DNA from: Candidatus Limnocylindria bacterium
GTDB taxonomy: Bacteria; Chloroflexota; Limnocylindria; P2-11E
Direction of reading: 5' to 3'
Length of the DNA stretch: 50,244 nt
NCBI GenBank assembly: GCA_050692015.1
Contig: JBOGTE010000002.1
Span: forward strand, 1 to 50,244
A model generated the notes under the pieces. It ran no database searches, was not told the origin of the DNA, and worked only from the letters and a program-made list of their open reading frames with translations. Below, piece by piece: positions 1 through 49,953 of the stretch; within the stretch, counting starts at the first letter, position 1; each line of letters opens with the position of its first letter. The position numbers and the translations under genes were made by a program.

Positions 1-2
1 CG

Positions 3-201
3 CACGTCCCGCGCTACGCCGCCGCTCACGTGCCCCTCGTCGGCGAGGACGGCAACGCCTTCGCGATCCTCGGCCGCACACGCCGAGCGCTCAAGGCGGC
101 AGGCGCAAGCCGCGACGAGATCGACGCGTTAACGCGGGAGGCGACCGCCGGCGATCACGACCACCTGCTCGCTACCGTCATGCGCTGGGTCGACGCCGAA
201 T
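3..201 (+). CDS. Hypothetical protein, C-terminal fragment (5' end outside window)
   Basis: Frame 3 reads ...HVPLVGEDGNAFAILGRTRRALKAAGASRDEIDALTREATAGDHDHLLATVMRWVDAE, stop TGA at 199-201. The 4-nt ATGA overlap (198-201) with the next ORF implies translational coupling. Family not recognised. Confidence 0.45.
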
Positions 202-880
202 GAGAGAATCCAGGCACTCGATGGTCACGACGCTCACTGACCTGCAGGCTTACGGGGATGAGTTGGCCGCGCGCATCGACGCCGGCTTCAAGAGTCACCC
301 GGAGCTTCCCGACCACCGTAAGGAGCATCCCTGGCTAACGGGCTGGCTGGGCGATTCCCGCGCGAAAGTCTGGTTCGTCTCTGAGGCGGCCAGCGCCTGG
401 CGTGTGAACCGCGCGGATCCCAACGGCGACGGGCTCTTCACCGTCGAGAGCCAGTGGGCCGTGAGCCCCGGAGACAAGGTGTTCCGGGAAGCGCTGGCGA
501 AGGCAGGCTTCAAGGATCGCCCTGCCGATGGCCCGGGCGGCTGGCACTGCTACATGACGGTCCTCGCGAAGTCGCATATCCAGTACGCGGACCGTGATCA
601 CGAGCAGCGGCAACAGCTCTTCAAGCTGTGGGCGCCGGTCTTGGCCTGGGAGCTGGCCCAAGGGAGGCCGCCGGTCATCGCCGCGATGGGCTCGGCCACC
701 GCCAAGGCTCTGCGCATGCTGACCGAGCTCGGGCTCATCAAGATCCCGGGCAAGGTGGTCGAGATCTGGAACTACGGCTACCTCATGCGACCTGGGCCGA
801 AACAGACCCCGCCAATGGACCCGGCGCGCATCGCTGCGTACGAGGAGCAAGTGGCCGGGGTGGCGCGACTTGGCTTCTAG
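200..880 (+). CDS. Hypothetical protein, possibly UDG-superfamily-like fold with divergent motifs
   Basis: 226-aa ORF, ATGA-coupled to the upstream ORF. Segments VWFVSEAAS...KVFREALAKAGF...WHCYMTVLAKS...PPVIAAMGSATAKAL...VVEIWNYGY line up with the order of UDG family-4 elements (motif A GEAPG, aG-l helix, vyitNvvkC strand, vivaLG..A strand, motif B HPS), but the catalytic residues are not conserved. Inference only. Confidence 0.5.
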   Translation: MRESRHSMVTTLTDLQAYGDELAARIDAGFKSHPELPDHRKEHPWLTGWLGDSRAKVWFVSEAASAWRVNRADPNGDGLFTVESQWAVSPGDKVFREALAKAGFKDRPADGPGGWHCYMTVLAKSHIQYADRDHEQRQQLFKLWAPVLAWELAQGRPPVIAAMGSATAKALRMLTELGLIKIPGKVVEIWNYGYLMRPGPKQTPPMDPARIAAYEEQVAGVARLGF

Positions 881-1292
881 AGCGAAGAGCCCGGCCGAGG
901 TTGATGCTCTGCTCGCCAGCTTGCCGGCAGACCTGAGCACGCTCTTCGGTCGAGCAACGCCGCAGACCGGCTATTGCTGCTGGAAGGCAGGCCGAAGGAA
1001 CTGGCTGCAGTGGAACGACCCGGGCGACTCTGCGCGCAAGCAGCTGGAGAACACGCAGGGTGAGATGCGGAGCTGGGAGTTATTCGCGCGGTTCGCGCGC
1101 CAACCCAGCTCGGCGTGGGAGAAGCCGGCGAGATACGAGGCATGGAAGTGGATGCCTTCGGGTGACGACGTTTGGGGCTGCACGCGTGCCGGGTTGGTTG
1201 CGTTCCCCGGCGACATAGCCCAGCTCAAGGCGCGGCTGATCGCTGACCTCACCGCCTCCCACGATTACTCGCAAGGCGAGTACGGCTCCTGA
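870..1292 (+). CDS. Hypothetical Trp-rich protein (TTG start)
   Basis: 140-aa ORF from a TTG start overlapping the previous stop by 11 nt. Third-position GC is about 78% against about 62% overall, which supports coding. No family recognised. Confidence 0.35.
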   Translation: MASRAKSPAEVDALLASLPADLSTLFGRATPQTGYCCWKAGRRNWLQWNDPGDSARKQLENTQGEMRSWELFARFARQPSSAWEKPARYEAWKWMPSGDDVWGCTRAGLVAFPGDIAQLKARLIADLTASHDYSQGEYGS

Positions 1293-1404
1293 GCCGCGTT
1301 GCTCGCCGGCAGCGAACGCCTCACCACCTACCCGGTGCTGGCGTCAGCCCGACGATGCAGCGCGAGGCCGCCGCGGCCTTCGATGCGGTGCCCGGAGCGG
1401 AGCG

Positions 1405-2196
1405 ATGATCACCAGCCTCGGTCGTCAGGCCACGGCCCGTTCGCTTGATACTCGTCGGATGGACGAACCTCGAGACTTGACCGTGATCTTCGTCGCCGAG
1501 TCGTTCGTCTCCGACCTCTTTAATCCAAACGAATGGCCCGCTCCGACCAAAGACATCGTGTCATCCTGCGCCAGCGAGTTGACAGTTCTCAGGCATTCCG
1601 CCGTGCGAATCGGCGAACTATGCGCAAACCGCCAAGTGCTGACCGACGGATACGCGCGCTCCCTTGAGCAGCAATGGCGAGTGGGTCAGTGGGATTGGAC
1701 GCGGGCCACGTACTTCGCTCAGGTGCCCGAACTTCACCTCACCATCGAGGCCTTCTTCTCAAGCCTCAAGGCCCTGCTGGATCTCATCTCACAGATGTAC
1801 AGGAGTGAGGATGTGGTAACGCCTTCGCTCGACGGATTTCACCGGCAGGGCGCCGTCTATGGCGGCAAGGTACTCAACGTCTTGAAGAGGAACACTGTCA
1901 AAGGCCGAGAAGAGGTGGCGTCCGCGATCTCTGATGTCATTTTGGCCGCGAAGGCAGAGTGGATTGATGACGCGATTCAGGCACGGGACGACCTGGTGCA
2001 TCCCCCTCGAGGTGCCGGGCAGCTGATGTTTGTCCTGAGGCTTGCGGAGCTAGAAGGCCGCCTTGAGATCGTCGAGGTCCTGCCGCCGTCGATCGCGGGG
2101 ACGCCGATCGACGAGTACGCGATTCGCGGCGTGGAGCGAATGACATCGTTTGGCAGAGCAGTGCTTGACCTTCTGAAGCCCGAGAGGGCGGCTTGA
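1405..2196 (+). CDS. Hypothetical protein of foreign (lower-GC) origin with a C-terminal R-x4-H (HEPN-like) motif
   Basis: 263-aa ORF in a roughly 58% GC block against about 70% around it. GGAGCGGAGCG lies ahead of the ATG, and a 17-codon uORF overlaps the start by ATGA (1405-1408). The motif ARDDLVH near the C-terminus is an R-x4-H pattern. No Walker or other recognisable catalytic motif. Confidence 0.6.
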   Translation: MITSLGRQATARSLDTRRMDEPRDLTVIFVAESFVSDLFNPNEWPAPTKDIVSSCASELTVLRHSAVRIGELCANRQVLTDGYARSLEQQWRVGQWDWTRATYFAQVPELHLTIEAFFSSLKALLDLISQMYRSEDVVTPSLDGFHRQGAVYGGKVLNVLKRNTVKGREEVASAISDVILAAKAEWIDDAIQARDDLVHPPRGAGQLMFVLRLAELEGRLEIVEVLPPSIAGTPIDEYAIRGVERMTSFGRAVLDLLKPERAA

Positions 2197-2209
2197 GCGG
2201 CCCGCGCGA

Positions 2210-2230
2210 CTCCGGACCCTGTCCCCGGAG
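2210..2230 (+). terminator. GC-rich hairpin directly after the 1405-2196 ORF (possible terminator)
   Basis: CTCCGGACcctGTCC-CCGGAG forms a stem of about 10 bp and begins 14 nt after the TGA stop. The downstream T-tract is weak (ttgcgcg). Confidence 0.3.
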
Positions 2231-2355
2231 TTGCGCGATGATCCTGACCCCTGCGAGTACCCCAGTTGCACGGAACGGACCCCGACCCAGCGGTACGGAT
2301 CGGGCCGAGTCTCCCAATGTTGGGTCGCATCGGGACGCTGCGGACTCATCCGGTG

Positions 2356-2414
2356 ACGCCTTGAAAACCGCTGAGGCCGCAAGGCCTCCGTGGGTTCGAA
2401 TCCCACCCCCTCCG
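2356..2414 (+). other. tRNA-Ser(UGA) 3'-half fragment, putative attachment-site remnant of an integrated element
   Basis: Anticodon loop cTTGAAAa (UGA), a long variable arm GAGGCCgcaaGGCCTC, T-arm GTGGGttcgaatCCCAC and acceptor 3' strand CCCCTCC-G are all present. The matching 5' acceptor strand (GGAGGGG) and a D-arm are absent upstream, so this is not a complete tRNA. The 3' end resembles tRNA-Ser(GGA) at 49871-49953 but is not identical. Confidence 0.6.
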
Positions 2415-2541
2415 CAGTCTAGAAATGACGCGGAAGGCCCGCTCTTAACTGGAGAGGGCCAGAGCAAGCGAGTTAGGCGAGCCAGGCGCCGAAGGGAACC
2501 GTGACGTTAGTGAAGAGAACAAGCGCCGGGCGATCGACCTC

Positions 2542-3057
2542 ATGGGCGAAGAGTGCCGCGCGATCGAGGCGCTGTTCCGGTCGCTTTCAGCATCGCAGCT
2601 CGACCTTCCTGTCTTCGGCGAGGGCCAGGGCTGGCGGGTAAGGGACATCCCCGCACATCTCGCGCTCTGGCAGTGGGTCGCGACCCGGGTCGCCGAGAAG
2701 GTCAGCGAGCGTGGCCAGCTCCCTGACACGCCGGACTGGGACATCTGGGCGGGGATCGAGACGCCGACGGATGAGCTCAACGACGAGAACTTCCGCGACT
2801 GGAGGGATCGTCCGGTCGAGGACGCGCTGGGCCGTCTGGCGTACGTTCACGCCGAGATGATCCGTGCCGTCGAGCGATTGACGCCTGAACAGATCGCGTC
2901 CGGGACGGCGCTGCCCGATGAGCTTCAGCCGTTCTTGCGGGCGCCGGGCGTCAGGCACATCCGCGCGCATCGAAAGCAGATCGAGTCCGCCCTCGGCGGG
3001 ACCGAGATCCTGAGGGAGGGCGGCTCGGCCACGAGCCGTCCGTCGGGCGTCACTTAA
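2542..3057 (+). CDS. DinB/YfiT-like four-helix-bundle protein (ClbS/DfsB DUF1706-like or MDMPI_N-like)
   Basis: 171 aa. WRVRDIPAHLALWQW resembles the 'W-x-v-kD-vlaHL-x-W' signature of this superfamily. The size is typical (about 170 aa). Confidence 0.45.
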   Translation: MGEECRAIEALFRSLSASQLDLPVFGEGQGWRVRDIPAHLALWQWVATRVAEKVSERGQLPDTPDWDIWAGIETPTDELNDENFRDWRDRPVEDALGRLAYVHAEMIRAVERLTPEQIASGTALPDELQPFLRAPGVRHIRAHRKQIESALGGTEILREGGSATSRPSGVT

Positions 3058-3071
3058 CGTAGAATGACTGC

Positions 3072-3299
3072 ATGACCATTAAAATGACCGCTTCGGCCGC
3101 CAAGGCGAAGATCCTCTCCCTGCTCGACGACGTTTCCGCCGGCCAGGAGGTCGAGATAACCAAGCACGGCCGCGTGGTCGCGAGGCTAGTGCCGGCTACC
3201 GGGCCGCACGCTCTCAAGGGGGCCCTCGTCGGTGTCGCTATGACTGCTGACAAGGAAGAGGATCTGTTCGCCACCGGAGCGAGCTGGGACCTGCCATAA
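3072..3299 (+). CDS. Type II antitoxin, Phd/YefM family
   Basis: MTIKMTASAAKAKILSLLDDVSAGQEVEITKHGRVVARLVP is a textbook Phd/YefM N-terminus. TAGAAT lies 7 nt upstream of the ATG, so the transcript is probably leaderless. Confidence 0.85.
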   Translation: MTIKMTASAAKAKILSLLDDVSAGQEVEITKHGRVVARLVPATGPHALKGALVGVAMTADKEEDLFATGASWDLP

Positions 3300-3304
3300 G
3301 CACG

Positions 3305-3688
3305 GTCGTACTCGACAGCCACGTCGTCCACTGGTGGTCGGCCGAGCCCGCTCGGATCAGCGCCGCCGCCAGCAGGGCCATCAGCGGGGCGGATGAGCTC
3401 GCGGTCGCCGACATCTCGTGGTTCGAGCTCGCCTGGCTTGCTCGACATGAGCGGATCGTCGTGACGATCCCGATCACATACTGGCTTCGGCAGCTGGCAG
3501 CCCAGATCCACTCGATCCCCGTAACGCCGGCGATCGCGGCAACGGCGGTCGCCCTGCCATCGTCGTTCCCGGGGGATCCAGCCGATCGGCTGATCTACGC
3601 GACGGCGATCGAGAATGGTTGGCGGCTCATCACGAAAGACCGCGGGCTGCGCTCCCACCGCCACCCTCATCCCGTGGCCCTCTGGTAG
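3305..3688 (+). CDS. vapC: Type II toxin VapC (PIN domain). N-terminal boundary uncertain: no canonical start codon
   Basis: The frame reads VVLDSHVVHWW...ADISWFE...RLIYATAIENGWRLITKD, which has the PIN acidic residues. It stays open back to 3251, but the only in-frame start-like codons upstream of the conserved N-terminus are CTG (3284) and ATA (3296-98, ATAA-overlapping the antitoxin stop). The first GTG, at 3455, would delete the PIN N-terminus. Confidence 0.6.
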   Translation, partial: VVLDSHVVHWWSAEPARISAAASRAISGADELAVADISWFELAWLARHERIVVTIPITYWLRQLAAQIHSIPVTPAIAATAVALPSSFPGDPADRLIYATAIENGWRLITKDRGLRSHRHPHPVALW

Positions 3689-3759
3689 GCGATCACGCGA
3701 GGCCTATCGCGCGCCTGCACTCGCAGGCCGTCCATTGACGGCGGTCTTGGCGATCCGGC

Positions 3760-4422
3760 CTAGGCGGTCGGCTGCGAAGGCAGGCCACCGTTCGTACGGT
3801 GGTCGACCAAGATCTGGTGAGCGACCTCGTCGCTCACGTCCGAGAAGTCCTCGTACCACACTGACAGCGAGGTGATGCCGGGCACGACCTCCAGGATCAC
3901 GACGTCATCCGCCTCCTGATCGAAGGCGTCGACCACGGCGGCTTTGGCCACGGGGACGGCGAATAGGAGCCGCCGCGGCTGCCGCAGACGCAGCTCACCC
4001 AACGCGGCACGCGCGACCAGGCCATCGATCACGCCCTCGGCCACGAGTATCGCGGTGCGACCCTCCAGCTCGACCGCGGGCCGATCCCCTCTAAGGCGGC
4101 GCTCTTCCTGCTCCGCCTCCTCCGACGCCCGCTGGGCCAGGGTGTCGAGGTCGTCGCCCGGTCGTAGCGCGCGGACCATGACCTCGTCCACCACTCTGAT
4201 CCCGCCGGGAGCCGCGGCGCCGATGACCACGTCGTGACGCGCGGACGCGGTGAGTGCGCGGGCGACGGCGATGTCCAGAGGAGCATCCATCTCCCGGGCC
4301 ACTTCGGCGGCCACAACGAGTCCTCCGCTGAGAAGCCCGACGATCGCCGGATGGTCGTCGCGGAAGGGGGCCAGAGCCTCCGTTAGGCGTTCGCCAGCTT
4401 CGCGCCGGTCGCGGAACTTCAT
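3760..4422 (-). CDS. Phosphoribosyltransferase-domain protein
   Basis: MKFRDRREAGERLTEAL...AIVGLLSGGLVVAAEVA matches the predicted-PRTase family N-terminus. The start was chosen at the MKF ATG (4422), not at the ORF-track extension up to 4719. Confidence 0.7.
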   Translation of the reverse strand: MKFRDRREAGERLTEALAPFRDDHPAIVGLLSGGLVVAAEVAREMDAPLDIAVARALTASARHDVVIGAAAPGGIRVVDEVMVRALRPGDDLDTLAQRASEEAEQEERRLRGDRPAVELEGRTAILVAEGVIDGLVARAALGELRLRQPRRLLFAVPVAKAAVVDAFDQEADDVVILEVVPGITSLSVWYEDFSDVSDEVAHQILVDHRTNGGLPSQPTA

Positions 4423-4490
4423 CGCCGTGACTGTACAGGCCGCTCGAGGCTGAGCGCCGACGTGATCGCCCCGTGCGATAGGGTCGGCGG

Positions 4491-5141
4491 GTGGAGAGAG
4501 TGGTCCTCTTCGACGTCGACAACACGCTCCTCGACAACGATCGCCTGAAAGCAGATCTCGCGGCCTCCCTCGCCTATGACCTCGGGGCCGGTCCGGCCGC
4601 TGACTTCGCGCGACTCTATGAGCAGGTGCGCATCGACGAGGACGGAGTGGTCGACTATCCGGAGACGCTGCGTCGGTTCGCGGCGAGGCACCCGGCGCTC
4701 GCGCACCGAGCGAACGCACTCATCAATGGGGTCGCGTTCGACGCTTACGTCTATCCGGGAGCGCTACGCGTCATCGCCGACTGCCGGGCGACGGGCAGGC
4801 CGGTGGTGCTCTCGGACGGCGACCCGATCTACCAGGTGGCGAAGATCGAGCGATCGGGTATCGCGGCCGCCGTTGCCGGCGACGTGCTCGTCTTCGACCA
4901 CAAGGAACGGCATGTCGATGAGGTCATTGGGCGCTTTCCTGCGTCTCGCTACTTGATGGTCGAGGACAAGGCGCCGACGCTCGCGCTGATGAAGGCGCAG
5001 CTCGGCGAACGACTGGTCACGGTGCACGTCAGACAGGGCCACTACGCCACCGAGGAGACTGCCGGCTTCGTCCCCGACTTCTCCATCGCTTCGGTCGGCG
5101 ACCTCGCGCCCGCGCGCATGATGGCAGGCGAGCTTGGCTGA
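4491..5141 (+). CDS. HAD-family hydrolase
   Basis: N-terminal FDVDNTLL is the DxDxT motif. Confidence 0.75.
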   Translation: MERVVLFDVDNTLLDNDRLKADLAASLAYDLGAGPAADFARLYEQVRIDEDGVVDYPETLRRFAARHPALAHRANALINGVAFDAYVYPGALRVIADCRATGRPVVLSDGDPIYQVAKIERSGIAAAVAGDVLVFDHKERHVDEVIGRFPASRYLMVEDKAPTLALMKAQLGERLVTVHVRQGHYATEETAGFVPDFSIASVGDLAPARMMAGELG

Positions 5142-5318
5142 GATCGTCTCAGCGCACCTCGTTGCGCGCCAGTTCCTGGGGTCGGGCCTGATCTCGTGAC
5201 TTGCGTTGCAGCTGCTTGCACCTGATCGCATTAAGAGTTGGCATCAAGTCTTCGCCGCGAGGCTCTTGGCACCGCCGGCGCTGATGCCACGATAGTGGGA
5301 TGATCGTATGGTCAACGT

Positions 5319-5630
5319 GTGCCACTGAAAAAGCGCCTCTCCGTCACGATCGACCCCGGGCTGCTCGCGGCCGGCCGAGTCGCGGTATCGCAAGGGCGCG
5401 CCGAGAATCTCAGCGCCTGGGTGAGCGAAGCGCTGCGCCGACAGATGGAGAACGACCGCCGTCTGGCGGCCCTCGACCGTGCCATCGGCGAGTACGAGGC
5501 GGAGCACGGCGTGATCACCGAGGAAGAGATGGATGAAGCCACACGCCGGCTTCGAGCGAGGGCCATCGTGATCCGCCCGTCGCCGAAACGGCGGACGGCC
5601 GCGGGCGGTCGCCGGCGGGGTGCCGCCTGA
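5319..5630 (+). CDS. Ribbon-helix-helix (CopG/VapB-like) antitoxin
   Basis: MPLKKRLSVTIDPGLLAAGRVAV...LSAWVSEALRRQ is an RHH N-terminus. The start is GTG, TATGGT lies 6 nt upstream (probably leaderless), and TGGCA/TGCCA repeats sit upstream. Confidence 0.7.
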   Translation: MPLKKRLSVTIDPGLLAAGRVAVSQGRAENLSAWVSEALRRQMENDRRLAALDRAIGEYEAEHGVITEEEMDEATRRLRARAIVIRPSPKRRTAAGGRRRGAA

Positions 5631-6118
5631 GCCTGGTCCTTGACGCGGGCGCGCTGGTCGCCCTGGAGCGCGGCGACCGGACCGTCATCGCGGCGGTCAA
5701 GAAGGAGCGATCCGGGGGCCGCTTCCCGGTGACCCACGGAGGGGTCGTCGGACAAGTCTGGCGAGGCGGCCGCGGACGCCAGGCGCGGCTCGCCAGCTTC
5801 CTACCCGGCTTCGACGTCCGTGCCCTCGACCGAGATCTCGGCCTTAGGGCGGGCGTCCTGCTGGGCAGAGCTGGCAGCGCCGACGTGATCGATGCCGCGC
5901 TTGTCGTCCTGGCCAAAGATGGCGACGAGATCCTGACCTCGGATCCCGAGGACCTGCGCGATCTGGCGATGGCCGCGAGCGCTCACGTTGAGCTGACGCC
6001 GGTCCAGACATCGCGCCGAGCGGCGGCTCGATCCCGCGCCCCGCGTCGACCGTCCGGTGCTACTGATCGATCTCCGCTACGGTCGGCGCGGTGGGGCACC
6101 CCTTCCGCATCGGCGTGA
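5627..6118 (+). CDS. vapC: VapC-like PIN toxin. The only start-like codon is CTG overlapping the antitoxin stop (CTGA)
   Basis: The frame reads LSLVLDAGALVALERGD...VIDAALVVLAKDGDEILTSDPEDLRDLA, PIN-like. There is no ATG, GTG or TTG in frame between the upstream stop (5534) and 5729. Confidence 0.55.
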   Translation: MSLVLDAGALVALERGDRTVIAAVKKERSGGRFPVTHGGVVGQVWRGGRGRQARLASFLPGFDVRALDRDLGLRAGVLLGRAGSADVIDAALVVLAKDGDEILTSDPEDLRDLAMAASAHVELTPVQTSRRAAARSRAPRRPSGATDRSPLRSARWGTPSASA

Positions 6119-6972
6119 AGCTCGCGGGCCAGGACACCACGGCCGAGGCGCTGCGCGAGGTCTGGCGTATCGCCGACGAGAGCGGCCTCGACCACGTCTG
6201 GTGCTTCGACCACGTCGCCGCGATCGGCGAGGGCGGCCCGGACCGCCCGGTCTTCGAGGGCTGGTCGCTGCAGGCGGCGATGGCCGTGGCCACCAAGCGC
6301 GTCCGTATCGGCTGCATGGTCACGGGCAACACCTACCGCCCGCCCTGGATGCTGGCGAAGATCGCCGTCACCGTTGACCACCTCTCCGGCGGCCGCCTCG
6401 AGTTCGGGATCGGCGCGGCCTGGGCGGAGGTCGAGCACCGGATGTACGACGTCGGCGGGCTCGACCACCGGGTCGGCAGGCTGAGCGAGTCCCTTCGCGT
6501 GCTGAAGATGCTCTGGACCGAGGACCGCGCTACGTTCGCGGGCCGCTACTACGCACTGAACGACGCGATCGGCAACCCCAAGCCCGTCCAGAAGCCGCAC
6601 CCGCCCATCTGGATCGGCGCGGGCGGAGACCAGCTCCTGCGGCTGACCGCACGCCACGCCGACGTCTGGAACGGCGCGGGTTCGGTCCCGACCCCGTCCC
6701 ATCCGGCGGCGAAGGAGCGGATCGTCGAGCTCAGCGAGAAGCTGGACGAGGCCTGCGCCGCGATCGGTCGCGACCCGGCCACGATCCGCCGCTCCATCCA
6801 GATGCCCTGGGACGGGAAGGACCGCGGCGCGCTCGTCGAGATGTCGGGCCGCCGCCTGGAGCAGGGCTTCACCGAGCAGATCGTGATGCTGCTCACGCCC
6901 GACGCGGTCCGGGTGGCGGGCGAGGTCGCCGAGACGCTCCCGGACCTGCGAAAGCTGGCGGCGCCGGCCTGA
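6091..6972 (+). CDS. LLM-class (luciferase-like) F420-dependent oxidoreductase
   Basis: 293 aa with typical LLM features: FRIGVKLAG..., GRLEFGIGAAW, HPPIWIGAGG. Confidence 0.75.
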   Translation: MGHPFRIGVKLAGQDTTAEALREVWRIADESGLDHVWCFDHVAAIGEGGPDRPVFEGWSLQAAMAVATKRVRIGCMVTGNTYRPPWMLAKIAVTVDHLSGGRLEFGIGAAWAEVEHRMYDVGGLDHRVGRLSESLRVLKMLWTEDRATFAGRYYALNDAIGNPKPVQKPHPPIWIGAGGDQLLRLTARHADVWNGAGSVPTPSHPAAKERIVELSEKLDEACAAIGRDPATIRRSIQMPWDGKDRGALVEMSGRRLEQGFTEQIVMLLTPDAVRVAGEVAETLPDLRKLAAPA

Positions 6973-7005
6973 GCCGGCCCGTGTAACGGCCGGCGGGCAT
7001 CCCGC

Positions 7006-7233
7006 TTGCATCACACTGGTCCCGTGGCCGAGCTGCGGACGCTCCAGCGGGAGTGCGCCCACAAGCGCTGGGAGTACCAGATCGCGCGGCAGGTGTACGA
7101 CGAGGTCACTCGCCTGGCCGTCGCCGACCGCACCGCCCTCGAGCGCGAGCTGAAGGAGGCGCTGGTCGCCTACTACGCGGCGCACGGCGCCCTGCACTCG
7201 GCGCTTCGCGGCTCCTCCGACCGCCTCCACTAG
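7006..7233 (+). CDS. Small hypothetical protein
   Basis: 75-aa predicted helical ORF between the LLM and permease genes. Confidence 0.35.
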   Translation: MHHTGPVAELRTLQRECAHKRWEYQIARQVYDEVTRLAVADRTALERELKEALVAYYAAHGALHSALRGSSDRLH

Positions 7234-7325
7234 GGCCAGTCGCCCCCCGGCGCCCCGCGCCCTAGACTCCGCTCGCTTCCTCGGCTTCTGAGCCGCTCCT
7301 TCTCGCTCGCGGTCCGGTGTGAGCA

Positions 7326-8759
7326 ATGGGGAAGGGGATCCAGCGCATGGCAGCACGAACCGAGACGGCGGTGGGCCGCGTGAACACGCTCGACCGCTAC
7401 TTCCGCGTCACCGAGCGCGGCTCCACGATCGGCACCGAGATCCGCGGCGGCGCCACGACGTTCCTGGTCATGTCCTACATCCTGGTCGTGAACGCCGTGA
7501 TCCTGTCCCAGGCGGGCGTTCCGTTCACCGCGGTCGTCGCGGCGACGGCGCTCCTCGCCGCGCTCTTCACCGGCGCGATGGCCCTCTGGGCGAACTACCC
7601 CTACGCCGGCGCGGCCGGCCTCGGCATCAACGCGGTCGTCGCGTTCCAGCTCGTCCAGGGCGCCGGCCTCTCGTGGCAGGCGGCCATGGGCGTCATCTTC
7701 CTCGAGGGCGTCGCCATCACCGTGCTCATGGCGATCGGCGTCCGCCGGCTGCTCCTCGACGCCGTGCCGCTCTCGCTGAAGATGGGCATCGGCGCCGGCA
7801 TCGGCGCGTTCATCTTCGCCATCGGCGTCTTCAACGGCGGCCTGGCGGTGGCGACGGGCAACCCGTCGGCACCGATCGGCCTCGGCAACTTCGCGAGCGC
7901 TCCGGTCATCGTCACGCTCGCCGGCCTGCTCATCACCGGAGCGCTCTACGCACGCGGCGTCAAGGGCAGCCTGCTGCTCGGGATCGTCGGCGCGACCATC
8001 GTCGGGGTCATCGTGAACGCGGCGAACGCGGGCGCCACGTACCGGGACTTCCCGGGTGTCGCGGTCATGCCCGAGAGCCTCGTCGCGGCCCCCGACTTCT
8101 CGACCATCGGACAGGGCCTCAACATCGACGTCTTCGCGACCCTCGGTCTCGCGGCCGCCCTCCTGGTCATCTTCAGCATCATGCTCTCCGACTTCTTCGA
8201 CACCGCCGGCACCGTGTACTCGGTCGCTTCCGAGGGCGGGTGGCTCAAGCCGGACGGCCGGATCGACCGTGTAGACCGCGTCTTCTGGATCGACTCCCTC
8301 GGCGCGATGTTCGGCGGGATCTTCGGCACCTCCAGCAACACGACGTACATCGAGTCGGGCTCCGGCGTGGCCGAGGGCGCCCGGACGGGGCTCGCCAGCC
8401 TGGTCACGTCGCTCCTGTTCCTACTCGCCATCTTCCTGGCGCCCATCGCCGGCATCGTCCCGGCGCAGGCGACGGCACCCGCGCTCATGCTCGTGGGCTG
8501 GTTCATGTTCCGGCCGGTGCTGGACCTGAACAAGCTCGGGAACATCGACTTCGCGACCGGTTTCGCCGTGCTCCTCACCGTCTTCGTCATGCCGCTCACG
8601 TACTCGATCACCAACGGCATCGGCGCCGGCTTCGTCGCCTACGCCCTGCTGAAGGCCATCGGGGGCAAGGGCAAGGACGTGTCCACGCCGATGTGGATCA
8701 CGACCGTCGCGTTCATCGTGTACTTCGCGGAGCCGTGGCTCCGGCAGTTCATCGGCTGA
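7326..8759 (+). CDS. NCS2-family nucleobase permease (AzgA/PbuG-like purine permease)
   Basis: 477-aa polytopic membrane protein. The N-terminus LDRYFRVTERGSTIGTEIRGGATTFLVMSYILVVN is characteristic of guanine/hypoxanthine permeases. An alternative start lies at 7347. Confidence 0.8.
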   Translation: MGKGIQRMAARTETAVGRVNTLDRYFRVTERGSTIGTEIRGGATTFLVMSYILVVNAVILSQAGVPFTAVVAATALLAALFTGAMALWANYPYAGAAGLGINAVVAFQLVQGAGLSWQAAMGVIFLEGVAITVLMAIGVRRLLLDAVPLSLKMGIGAGIGAFIFAIGVFNGGLAVATGNPSAPIGLGNFASAPVIVTLAGLLITGALYARGVKGSLLLGIVGATIVGVIVNAANAGATYRDFPGVAVMPESLVAAPDFSTIGQGLNIDVFATLGLAAALLVIFSIMLSDFFDTAGTVYSVASEGGWLKPDGRIDRVDRVFWIDSLGAMFGGIFGTSSNTTYIESGSGVAEGARTGLASLVTSLLFLLAIFLAPIAGIVPAQATAPALMLVGWFMFRPVLDLNKLGNIDFATGFAVLLTVFVMPLTYSITNGIGAGFVAYALLKAIGGKGKDVSTPMWITTVAFIVYFAEPWLRQFIG

Positions 8760-8779
8760 CCCGCGAGGCTCGCGCATCA

Positions 8780-8820
8780 AGGGAGAGGGCTCCGCTTCGG
8801 CGGGGCCCTCTCCTCTTTCT
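8780..8820 (+). terminator. Rho-independent terminator after the permease gene
   Basis: AGGGAGAGGGCtCCGC-TTCG-GCGGgGCCCTCTCCT hairpin followed by CTTTCT. Confidence 0.6.
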
Positions 8821-8880
8821 ACTGCGCTCACGCGCACTGCTTGACCTGCACATCGAGCGCGAACCGTTAACGTCACCGCG

Positions 8881-9369
8881 ATGACCCTGGGTGCCCGCTT
8901 CGCGATCGCGGAGGATCTGGTCATCGAAGTCCCTGTTGCGCCGGAGGCGCTCGCGAGCCGGCTGCGCTCGCGGCTGAACCAGCGCCCGAAGCGCGCGCTA
9001 GGGATCCTCAAGGTGAGCGACGAGTGGATCGGCGTCGTTCATGGGAACGAGTTCGCGGTCTGGGAGCGCCGCCAGCACGCGATGCGGGCGCAGGGCCGGA
9101 TCCGGGCCGTGCGGGGAGGCTCGCGCGTGGAGGCGCGCATCTCTCTGACCCGGCGCTCGGCCGTGCTGATGGTGGTCTTCTTCGCGCTCTTCGCCGTCGG
9201 TGCGGTCGGGATCCTGAGCCGGCCGGAGGGTCTCGGCATCTCCCCCGCGACGCTCGTGCTCGTAGGGCTGGCGGTCCTCGGCACCCTGCTCGTCTTCTGG
9301 GTGGGGTCGCTCCGCCAGCGCGCGGCGCTCCGCGCATTCCTCGCGGACGTGTTCCGCGACGCGCCGTAG
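8881..9369 (+). CDS. Hypothetical membrane protein
   Basis: 162 aa with a two-TM C-terminal half (VLMVVFFALFAVGAVGIL, LVLVGLAVLGTLLVFWVG). Confidence 0.5.
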   Translation: MTLGARFAIAEDLVIEVPVAPEALASRLRSRLNQRPKRALGILKVSDEWIGVVHGNEFAVWERRQHAMRAQGRIRAVRGGSRVEARISLTRRSAVLMVVFFALFAVGAVGILSRPEGLGISPATLVLVGLAVLGTLLVFWVGSLRQRAALRAFLADVFRDAP

Positions 9370-9380
9370 GATCGATCCGG

Positions 9381-10094
9381 ATGGAACCGCTCGTCGCGGC
9401 GCGGGAAGCCCTCGCAAGAGGGGAGCGCGCCGTCCTCGTGACCGTCACCGGGATCGAGGGTGAGCCGCCCTCGCGGGAGGGGCTGGCCTTCGCCTACGTC
9501 GAGGGCGGCCGGACGTTCGGCACGCTCGGCTGCGACGGGTTCGACCGCGCCGCGGCGGCCGATGCGGCGCGAGCGCTCGGGAGCGCGACGCGCCTCGAGA
9601 GCGCGTACGAGTGGGATGCCGGCTCGCGCATTCTTGTAGAGGTGCGGCCGCTGCGGCAGGAGGACGCCGTTCCCGGAGCCGGCGCCGAAGCGGAGGTCCT
9701 CGTCGTCGGGGGCGGTCCGGTCGCGCGTGCTCTCGAGGTCCTCGCTCGCACCGTCGGCTTCCAGGTACGCACCGCCGCGCCGACCGATGATCTCGACGCC
9801 GGCCGCGAGACGTACGTCGTCATCTGCGGTCACGACGAGGAGGCTTCCCAGCCCGCGCTGCGGAAGCTGCTCTCGAGCCCCGCGCCGTACCTCGGCATGA
9901 TGGGCAGCCGTCGCCACACGGGGCACCTGCTCGGGGAGCTGCGCGCCGCCGGCCACAGCGACAGCTCGCTCGAGCGCGTGCACACGCCGGTGGGACTCGA
10001 CCTGCGCGCCGAGACGCCCGAGGAGATCGCGCTGGCCGCGCTCGCTCATGTCGTCGCGGTGCGGAGGAGGGGAACGGGTGCACCGCTCGCTTGA
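9381..10094 (+). CDS. xdhC: XdhC/CoxI-family molybdenum-cofactor insertion accessory protein
   Basis: MEPLVAAREALARGERAVLVTV (XdhC_CoxI N-terminus) plus a Rossmann-like LVVGGGPVARAL. The start was taken at the internal ATG of the 9024-10094 ORF. Confidence 0.7.
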   Translation: MEPLVAAREALARGERAVLVTVTGIEGEPPSREGLAFAYVEGGRTFGTLGCDGFDRAAAADAARALGSATRLESAYEWDAGSRILVEVRPLRQEDAVPGAGAEAEVLVVGGGPVARALEVLARTVGFQVRTAAPTDDLDAGRETYVVICGHDEEASQPALRKLLSSPAPYLGMMGSRRHTGHLLGELRAAGHSDSSLERVHTPVGLDLRAETPEEIALAALAHVVAVRRRGTGAPLA

Positions 10095-10159
10095 TCCTGG
10101 TATGCGCTCGTCCGCCGCGCGGCTACGAGAGTCGCCTGTTCCCTCGAGGGGTCCGCCGG

Positions 10160-10165
10160 TACAAT
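10160..10165 (+). promoter_or_regulatory. Putative -10 hexamer (TACAAT) for tRNA-Ser(GCT)
   Basis: A TANNNT hexamer lies 9 nt upstream of the tRNA 5' end. Confidence 0.3.
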
Positions 10166-10174
10166 GACCCCCCA

Positions 10175-10264
10175 GGAGAGGTCGCATAGTTGGCCTAGTG
10201 CGGCAGGTTGCTAACCTGCTATAGGGAGTTTTCCCTATCGAGGGTTCGAATCCCTCCCTCTCCG
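10175..10264 (+). tRNA. tRNA-Ser (anticodon GCT)
   Basis: 90 nt. Acceptor GGAGAGG/CCTCTCC, anticodon loop tTGCTAa, long variable arm, T-loop GGTTCGAATCC. Confidence 0.9.
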
Positions 10265-10292
10265 CCGTCGCGGTAGCCTCTCAGCCGTTCCC

Positions 10293-10751
10293 ATGAAAAC
10301 GGAGCGCTCCTACAACGAGCACAACACCCGCGAGCGCGAGCGGCTGCGCGCCCTCGTCGAGCGCCTCAGCGATGACGACCTGCGGCGCAAGGTCAACGAG
10401 AGCTGGACGGTCGCGGCTGTGCTCGGCCACGTCGCCTTCTGGGATGCCCGCCAGCTGTACCTGGTGGACAAGCTCGAGCGCGGCCTGGCCTTCACCCCCG
10501 CCGAGATCGAGCCGCACCCGCCGGACTGGATCAACGACTCCACGCGTCCGCTGATCGATGCGCTCGATCCGCGCGCGGCCGCCGACCTCGCACTTCGGAT
10601 CGCGGAGCAGATCGACGCGAAGATCGCCGCGCTCCCGCCCGACCTCGCGGCACACACCTGGCCGACGGACCCGGAAAGCCTGGTCAACCCCTTGCGCGCC
10701 GCGCACCGCGGCGAGCACCTCGACGAGATCGAGGCCGCCCTGGCCCGCTGA
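10293..10751 (+). CDS. DinB-like (DUF664-type) four-helix-bundle protein
   Basis: WTVAAVLGHVAFWD with a C-terminal HRGEHLDEI. His-rich DinB/YfiT-like pattern. Confidence 0.5.
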   Translation: MKTERSYNEHNTRERERLRALVERLSDDDLRRKVNESWTVAAVLGHVAFWDARQLYLVDKLERGLAFTPAEIEPHPPDWINDSTRPLIDALDPRAAADLALRIAEQIDAKIAALPPDLAAHTWPTDPESLVNPLRAAHRGEHLDEIEAALAR

Positions 10752-33276: not shown

Positions 33277-33349
33277 GGCCCCGTAGCTCAGCGGATAAAG
33301 CAACGGACTTCGAATCCGTGATCGGGAGTTCGATTCTCCCCGGGGCCGC
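33277..33349 (+). tRNA. tRNA-Arg (anticodon TCG)
   Basis: Acceptor GGCCCCG/CGGGGCC, anticodon loop cTTCGAa, T-loop GAGTTCGATTCTC. Confidence 0.85.
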
Positions 33350-49762: not shown

Positions 49763-49845
49763 CGGAGAGGTGTCCGAGTGGTTGAAGGTGCCGCTCTCGA
49801 AAAGCGGTAGGCGAAAGCCTCGCGGGTTCGAATCCCGCCCTCTCC
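49763..49845 (+). tRNA. tRNA-Ser (anticodon CGA)
   Basis: GGAGAGG.../CCTCTCC acceptor, anticodon loop cTCGAAa, long variable arm, T-loop GGTTCGAATCC. TAAACT lies 7 nt upstream. Confidence 0.85.
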
Positions 49846-49870: not shown

Positions 49871-49953
49871 GGAGAGGTCGCCTAGTGGCCTAGGGCGCTG
49901 ACCTGGAAAGTCAGTGGGTGAAAGCCCCGTGGGTTCGAATCCCACCCTCTCCG
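49871..49953 (+). tRNA. tRNA-Ser (anticodon GGA)
   Basis: GGAGAGG acceptor, anticodon loop cTGGAAa, long variable arm, T-loop GGTTCGAATCC. Confidence 0.85.

Follow-up and report, generated by a model that had tools for sequence, protein, structure and literature searches.

We analyzed the complete contig JBOGTE010000002.1 (50,244 nucleotides), from the assembly GCA_050692015.1 of a Candidatus Limnocylindria (Chloroflexota) metagenome-assembled genome (MAG); this whole stretch is called the window below, and its position 1 is the contig end. The subject is the first 2.4 kb, where four open reading frames (ORFs) and a non-coding arm run up to the 3′ half of a tRNA-Ser(UGA) gene that has no 5′ half, an arrangement that resembles the far end of an integrative element inserted in that tRNA gene. 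The features in question are as follows.

3-203, + strand: small mobile-element protein, 66 aa seen, phrog_1933 (E 2e-23)
200-880, + strand: divergent protein of the uracil-DNA-glycosylase (UDG) superfamily, cargo, from a rare family
870-1292, + strand: 140-aa ORF with no assigned function, called as a gene on a Logan contig
1405-2196, + strand: 263-aa orphan ORF, with the lowest GC content of the block (59.8%; third-codon-position GC, GC3, 0.71)
2236-2359, + strand: conserved non-coding element arm of P-arm type, delimited with an nhmmer profile and ending exactly at the core
2360-2414, + strand: 3′ half of tRNA-Ser(UGA), tRNA positions 32 to 73, the predicted att core of an attR-type junction

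The tRNA copy spans 55 nt, from C32, which is base one of the anticodon loop, to the discriminator, and its parts can be assigned throughout.

2360-2366: anticodon loop, CTTGAAA
2367-2371: anticodon stem, 3′ strand
within 2372-2388: long variable arm, GAGGCC-GCAA-GGCCTC, with perfect pairing
2390-2406: T-arm, GTGGG-TTCGAAT-CCCAC
2407-2413: acceptor 3′ strand, CCCCTCC
2414: discriminator G

An earlier reading of the letters alone (the first-pass annotation) had described a tRNA-Ser(UGA) 3′ half without its 5′ half at 2356-2414; the half gene is real, and its start moves to 2360. It matched intact tRNA-Ser(UGA) genes of related MAGs at 94-96% identity over 56-57 nt (E 1e-17 to 1e-22), with variable-arm changes that are compensatory (GAGGCC/GGCCTC in the window, GAAGTC/GGCTTC in the relatives). 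In blastn searches against phages, phage tRNA-Ser genes matched the window from exactly 2360 to 2414/2415, and the chance expectation for a 25-nt piece of the fragment was 0 matches.

We found nothing of the other half, in agreement with the first-pass annotation, which had seen neither an acceptor 5′ strand nor a D-arm upstream. No GGAGGGG-like acceptor 5′ strand was present within 360 nt upstream of the fragment, and the 5′ strand of the anticodon stem is missing, the bases before the fragment (GACGC) not being complementary to ACCGC. ARAGORN called no tRNA at 2360-2414, though it called five elsewhere in the window (Ser-GCU at 10175, two Arg at 33277 and 33392, Ser-CGA at 49763 and Ser-GGA at 49871), and at E ≤ 1 the fragment drew no match from the tRNA model of Rfam. 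The sole Rfam match there was to RF04351, a plastid element whose model also fits the antisense of the 3′ half of the window's intact tRNA-Ser(GCU). Neither a second copy of the anticodon and variable-arm part nor an intact tRNA-Ser(UGA) was detected in the window. Two other identities for this DNA were considered and rejected. One is a decayed tRNA 5′ half upstream of the fragment, for which identity was 16-18/45 at offset 0 and 6-20 at other offsets, and the tRNA finders were negative. The other is a functional non-canonical tRNA, the finding that by the first-pass annotation's own account would have overturned its proposal; ARAGORN and Rfam were negative, the 5′ side of the anticodon stem does not pair, and the 360 nt upstream hold no acceptor 5′ strand.

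A search with the xanthine/uracil permease encoded at 7326-8756, run against a single genome for each GTDB species, yielded 80 loci, about 40 of them with Limnocylindria orthologs at 71-92% identity. At least nine related MAG loci (L010, L027, L029, L034, L036, L037, L039, L043 and L044) carry an intact + strand tRNA-Ser(UGA) 85 nt to ~8 kb upstream of the permease, with tRNA-Ser(GCU) downstream wherever the locus is long enough, as in the window, where the fragment lies 4.9 kb upstream of the permease. Judged from this synteny with the permease and tRNA-Ser(GCU), 2360-2414 occupies the ancestral tRNA-Ser(UGA) locus. On the upstream side of this tRNA the relatives show no gene conservation, and so they gave no route to the chromosomal left flank. 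Homologs of the proteins encoded in 3-5141 were found in none of the 80 related loci, so that, in the comparison with uninserted genomes proposed by the first-pass annotation, the nine loci with an uninterrupted tRNA also lack the proteins of the block. The DNA between tRNA-Ser(UGA) and the permease is unrelated from genome to genome, and sharing with the closest relatives starts only at 5284 (L007) and 6068 (L004). The downstream side of tRNA-Ser(UGA) is an insertion hot spot.

Two of the related loci bear further marks at this site. At L052, the last 20 nt of the intact tRNA-Ser(UGA) (2023-2078), TCGAATCCCACCCCCTCCGC, are repeated at 100% identity ~860 nt downstream (2940-2959), a repeat that another kind of element, crossing over in the T-loop/acceptor region, may have left behind. 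At L036, a gene for 67 aa (MADDLTVNREGD...; 9692-9907) directly follows the intact tRNA-Ser(UGA) and has 82% DNA identity to the gene after the integrase in contig L093 (2115-2329); at its end, L093 carries on the opposite strand what we read as the 3′ terminus of a further tRNA. An earlier integration may have left the L036 copy behind.

The four left ORFs had been described as lacking a recognizable housekeeping role, and searches of Pfam, NCBIfam, PHROGs and PADLOC agree. The first (annotated as ACRDGT_00315, partial) is cut at its N terminus by the contig end, and the alignment indicates that only the variable N terminus is gone and that the conserved domain is essentially complete. It gave tblastn matches in 197 phage records, with homologs in phages of Mycobacterium, Arthrobacter, Microbacterium, Listeria and Campylobacter, and further homologs were found in metagenomes (n=457). 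Five of six homolog contexts have a tyrosine integrase 0-3 genes further downstream in the same orientation, usually together with an HTH_17 (excisionase-like) gene. These contexts are L088/L089, which is similar to an integrative and conjugative element (ICE) and carries type IV secretion system genes, L090, L092, L093 and L094; the exception as regards the integrase module is the sixth, L095, where the genes form an array like that of a phage or plasmid.

The second ORF matches NCBI protein ACRDGT_00320 over 221-880. Its Pfam UDG score of 22.8 bits is slightly below the cut-off, PF03167 was matched by four of the five members of its family (best E 2.7e-9), and its AlphaFold2 model (pLDDT 81) had UdgX and family-4 UDG as top PDB matches (E ~1e-6, TM ~0.5). 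Among 5.8 billion clusters it has only four homologs, all on contigs of <2.2 kb. The third ORF had no match in Pfam, NCBIfam, PHROGs, PADLOC or PDB sequences. The fourth, which matches ACRDGT_00330, is the sole member of its own family among the 5.8 billion clusters; it likewise had no match in Pfam, NCBIfam, PHROGs, PADLOC or PDB, and its AlphaFold2 model is unusable (pLDDT 38.6). An R-x4-H motif (RDDLVH) spotted by eye in its translation might, speculatively, be HEPN-like. PADLOC returned no defense-system match among the cargo ORFs. No transposase domain was found in the left block, and no DEDD/Transposase_20 Pfam domain in the ORFs of 1-2504.

The composition of this block is also atypical. 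GC content is 71.0% for the whole window, 65.2% for 1-2415 and 67.7% for 2416-5900, and GC3 of the four left ORFs is 0.71-0.85 (0.85 for 200-880 and 0.79 for 870-1292), compared to 0.88-0.97 for most core genes. The left block is foreign DNA that carries a mobile-element gene.

Between the last ORF and the tRNA copy lies the non-coding arm. We built a profile from the corresponding arms of two other contigs with tRNA-Ser 3′ halves, L016 and L086 only, with the core excluded, and searched it across the window; nhmmer found 2236-2349 at E 1.4e-4, and the next match in the window had E 6.5. Over the 45 nt left of the core, in-register identity among the three arms was 22/45 in each of the two comparisons with the window and 29/45 in the third, against counts of 4-15 at shifts of ±1 to 4 positions. 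All three share the pattern TCGGRAC-N4-CSGAMYC-N12-core and hold several copies of CGG(A/G)AC, repeats that may be putative arm sites for an integrase. Plain Smith-Waterman alignments of the arms were weak (window vs L016, z=0.5; window vs L086, z=4.1), and the homology rests on the in-register counts and the nhmmer profile, not on local alignment. Because it is homologous to the arms at these other tRNA-Ser fragments, we read 2236-2359 as element DNA conserved beside the core, as is expected of a P arm with predicted integrase sites.

The same boundary recurs elsewhere. In L016, a Limnocylindria MAG contig, the 3′ half lies at 667-722 with non-tRNA sequence on its 5′ side, and the contig ends 634 nt further left; contig L011 starts exactly at C32, and the fragment in L022 is degenerate, its start lying near position 39. 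When JGI metagenomes were scanned for exact copies of the 55-nt core, four contigs came back, namely L084, where the core sits within an intact tRNA, and L085/L087 and L086, where non-tRNA sequence adjoins it on the left from C32; GTDB representative genomes gave 0 matches. As a C32 start recurs across independent contigs, the recombination boundary is reproducible. ARAGORN miscalled L016 635-723 as a tRNA-Ser(UGA), its "5′ half" (GGTCGGGACAGATCGGAACCATCGTCTGCGAA) being the element arm; att fragments can therefore end up in the tRNA counts that automated tools give for such MAGs. In the L084 tRNA (340-426), the 3′ half equals the window core and the D-arm departs from the Limnocylindria consensus at several positions (compare, for example, L037 4862-4949), which is compatible with, and does not establish, a spread of element-borne 3′ halves between hosts.

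A link from this arm to an integrase comes from L086 and L092. In L086, 88 nt beyond arm and core, the other strand encodes the C-terminal 95 residues of a tyrosine integrase whose gene is truncated by an IS256-type transposase (transposase family read from the translation). This remnant is 68% identical to the 401-aa integrase of L092 (SRR33230369_306914), the contig that encodes a small protein with 71% identity to window ORF 3-203 and whose end holds 28 nt identical to window 2389-2416, with the integrase module 3′ of the tRNA. The L092 end is an attL-type junction. A second copy of the C terminus of its integrase (20 residues, 90% identical) lies ~700 nt from the tRNA-Ser end; in coordinates of the reverse complement of L092, the two C-terminal stretches are at 731-791 and 2576-2633, with the intact integrase gene 2.5 kb away, which suggests successive integrations at the same site.

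The right-hand sides of these contigs give the orientation of the window. After the core, L084, L086, L087 and L092 have mutually homologous element-side flanks, CAT(T/C)TTGTTGGCG..., and L085 has a near variant, CAGTCTTGTTGGCG..., whereas the right flank of the window, CAGTCTAGAAATG..., is unlike the element-side flank of L084-L087 and L092. With the element arm on its left and non-element DNA on its right, the window is therefore in the attR configuration.

Taken together, these data suggest that an integrative element (a prophage or an island of integrative/conjugative type) entered tRNA-Ser(UGA) and that 1-2414 is its distal end, of attR type; we put the probability of this at roughly 0.8. 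The first-pass annotation had taken the fragment for the footprint of an integration with the element to its left, and the ancestral locus, the foreign block, the phage-family gene, the conserved arm and the right flank all point the same way. The proposed event would be a site-specific recombination into the chromosomal tRNA-Ser(UGA), most likely by a tyrosine integrase, with crossover in the 7-nt anticodon loop. The attP of the element would have included its own copy of tRNA positions 32-73, from C32 through the 3′ end. At the left junction, unseen here, the tRNA 5′ half and one core copy would form an intact gene, and the right junction would consist of the non-coding arm at 2236-2359, the second core copy at 2360-2414 and the DNA that originally lay downstream. 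Beyond position 1 one would then expect the intact tRNA and the integrase, whose type we infer. Such an event is of a common and well-understood kind, with a textbook signature and no new mechanism, here in a phylum that has been little studied.

Several observations weigh against this interpretation. The window contains no integrase or intact tRNA-Ser(UGA), and the distance from the fragment to the contig end is 2.36 kb; when five integrases of the homolog contexts were used as tblastn queries, no integrase remnant turned up in the window either. The gene after the window's small protein is UDG-like and not an integrase, unlike in five of the six homolog contexts, and, seen from the core, the genes stand in mirror-image order to those of L092. 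Given these last two features, the layout of the element is not that of its closest analogues, and the element may be degraded. The phage signal consists of the small phrog_1933 gene only, a family also present in the ICE-like context with type IV secretion system genes, and IMG/VR gave 0 matches for the degenerate core, the arm-plus-core pattern, the UDG-like protein and the L092 integrase, for which reason a phage identity is unproven. Finally, atypical composition goes on for ~2.9 kb right of the fragment, from 2416 to about 5283, with GC3 of 0.71-0.84 in 2416-5283. The low-GC anomaly that the first-pass annotation placed left of the fragment is real (59.8% for ORF 1405-2196, given there as ~58%), but it is not confined to that side. 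Because atypical, non-conserved DNA runs this far beyond it, the fragment is not a compositional boundary: it does end one element, as proposed, but low-GC3 unshared DNA continues to its right, and it marks the end of one element within a larger insertion hot spot.

We also looked for the same DNA in read assemblies. Logan contig SRR27067772_3408 (2,389 bp) is 100% identical to window 1-2389 and begins at the same base, and another Logan contig, L003, is 100% identical to window 4818-10265. Because of these identities, we consider that the MAG probably derived from the SRR27067772 sample or a very similar one. Attempts to extend the contig leftward by exact-protein look-ups returned the Logan contig for 1-2389, the contig of the window and a pair of contigs beginning right of the fragment, and nothing else. 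By construction, Logan contigs of one accession share no 31-mer (PMC12424806). The end of the k=31 contig at 2389 equals 2359+30, its last 31-mer being 2359-2389, and because the contig stops there, the 30-mer 2360-2389 must have at least two different predecessors in the sample. Such a branch is what would be expected if an intact tRNA (...GCGGT followed by CTTGAAAA) coexists with the fragment (...GACGC followed by CTTGAAAA), wherever in the sample the other copy may lie. The shared start of the Logan and MAG contigs we take to mean that alternative sequences exist left of position 1 in the sample. The last base of L003, 10265, lies one position beyond the discriminator of tRNA-Ser(GCU) (10175-10266), which suggests two sequences downstream of that tRNA in the sample, possibly a further att site in occupied and empty form or strain variation. 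Its other end (4818) and the contig start of a second MAG (4264) both fall inside the variable flank right of the fragment.

Three other accounts of the fragment need to be weighed. The region could be a decayed relic of an old integration that arose in the way just described, its integrase lost or replaced and excision no longer occurring, with the intact tRNA perhaps only a few kilobases away. The missing integrase would fit, given that five of six homolog contexts hold one and the window retains no remnant, as would a hot spot filled with unrelated DNA from relative to relative, which suggests that gain and decay have recurred, and remnants do occur elsewhere (the degenerate fragment in L022, the 20-nt repeat in L052 and the integrase C-terminal remnant in L092). 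Nevertheless, the core is undegraded, its 55 nt being identical to the copy in the intact L084 tRNA and its variable arm perfectly paired, all four ORFs remain open and conservation of the arm can still be recognized, and we regard a relic as possible but doubtful. An assembly chimera is quite unlikely. It would have joined the attP and attB of the sample within the 55-61-nt core, so that 1-2359 is not linked to 2415 onward in cells. A 55-nt repeat is at the limit of the k values commonly used for short reads, the assembly graph of what is probably the same sample has a branch point at the core, and several related MAG contigs break at tRNA-Ser(UGA) (L011 at C32, L016 634 nt upstream of its fragment); on the other hand, the same succession of arm, core and non-element flank is found in L016, an independent MAG, and even a chimera would leave standing an element that targets tRNA-Ser(UGA) at C32.

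The least probable account, to which we give very little weight, is a simple disruption, in which a transposon or IS110-type insert split the anticodon loop with no duplication of the 3′ half, leaving the 5′ half at the far end of the insert. A precedent at this very boundary exists in L085/L087, where an IS110-family-like ORF (assigned by eye) and ~240 nt of non-coding DNA abut C32. Yet the left block has no transposase domain, and the window arm is unrelated to that of L085 and homologous to those of L016 and L086, the second of which ties this arm type to a tyrosine integrase remnant. The core also has a second context in the sample, and loss of the only tRNA reading UCA would probably be deleterious. 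In L085 itself (Ga0209343_10110927), the ORF, a 427-aa IS110-family-like transposase by eye from its translation, occupies 112-1392 on the minus strand, and the non-coding stretch at 1393-1634 meets the tRNA-Ser(UGA) 3′ half exactly at C32/T33, with the same left side in L087. This junction is that of the integrase-type elements, and its 'CT' is one that we take to resemble the core dinucleotide of IS110/IS621-type recombination.

If 1-2414 is the distal end of an integrative element, as we favor, the DNA to its right is the variable flank of the hot spot, outside the element. Its genes, with domains from Pfam, are as follows.

2416-5283: variable flank as a whole
2542-3057: DinB-family gene
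3072-3299: Phd antitoxin (Phd/YefM type)
3296-3688: PIN/VapC toxin
within 3760-4719, minus strand: PRTase-like gene
4491-5141: HAD hydrolase

The Phd/YefM-type antitoxin and VapC-type toxin genes overlap by 4 nt and stand just right of the fragment, after the DinB-family gene. A second DinB_2 gene follows tRNA-Ser(GCU) (L002 6030-6488, about window 10293-10751). No second tRNA fragment or tandem array was found right of 2414, and no integrase remnant in 2416-5283.

For users of this assembly, the first 2.4 kb of the contig can be flagged as mobile DNA with a rare UDG-superfamily gene and an orphan gene, and tRNA-Ser(UGA) can be marked as an insertion hot spot in Limnocylindria, where insertions may account for several of the MAG contig breaks. 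The defined att core and arm motif could be used to recover the full element and its integrase from long-read data. More tentatively, and with less confidence than we place in the window itself, the window, L016 and L086 could represent an undescribed lineage of tRNA-Ser(UGA)-specific elements, with a 120-nt arm of the pattern given above, common in uncultured Limnocylindria and related soil and freshwater bacteria and a systematic cause of MAG contig breaks, on whose C32/T33 site an unrelated IS110-type element (L085/L087) would have converged.

Known systems offer analogues at three levels. Phage mv4 of Lactobacillus delbrueckii (bioRxiv 10.1101/2023.11.06.565760) resembles the proposed element in having a tRNA-Ser target and a tyrosine recombinase; it differs in using the 3′ end of tRNA-Ser with a short core, where the window has a 55-nt block that begins at the anticodon loop, and the likeness is one of description only. 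Closer is the L092 element, ordered as tRNA-Ser 3′ end, flank, integrase (401 aa, Phage_int_SAM_3 and Phage_integrase), HTH_17 and small protein, which shares with the window the 71%-identical small protein and the 28 nt of tRNA-Ser 3′ end belonging to the same core, and whose integrase type is tied through L086 to an arm homologous to that of the window. Unlike in the window, the visible end of L092 is the tRNA-proximal one, of attL type, and there the small gene, lying on the integrase side, points towards the tRNA; in the window the corresponding gene points towards the fragment from the opposite side, and it is followed by the UDG-like gene where L092 has xis and int instead.

The general class is that of Islander-type islands with an anticodon-centered ('A') attP (Williams 2002; Hudson et al. 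2015, PMC4383910). Like the window, these have a displaced 3′ fragment of the tRNA gene (tDNA) in direct orientation at the far end, a block of identity from the anticodon loop to the tRNA 3′ end, a foreign composition and gene set, and relatives with an empty site. The window differs from these islands in that the contig stops short of any integrase and regenerated tRNA, that the host belongs to the uncultured Limnocylindria (Chloroflexota), and that the cargo genes are orphan or very rare. The Islander database holds 2083 islands with an anticodon-centered attP, and 3760 with a 3′ tDNA fragment versus 159 with a 5′ fragment (PMC4383910); the 3′ fragment architecture, which is that of the window, is the commonest among tDNA islands.

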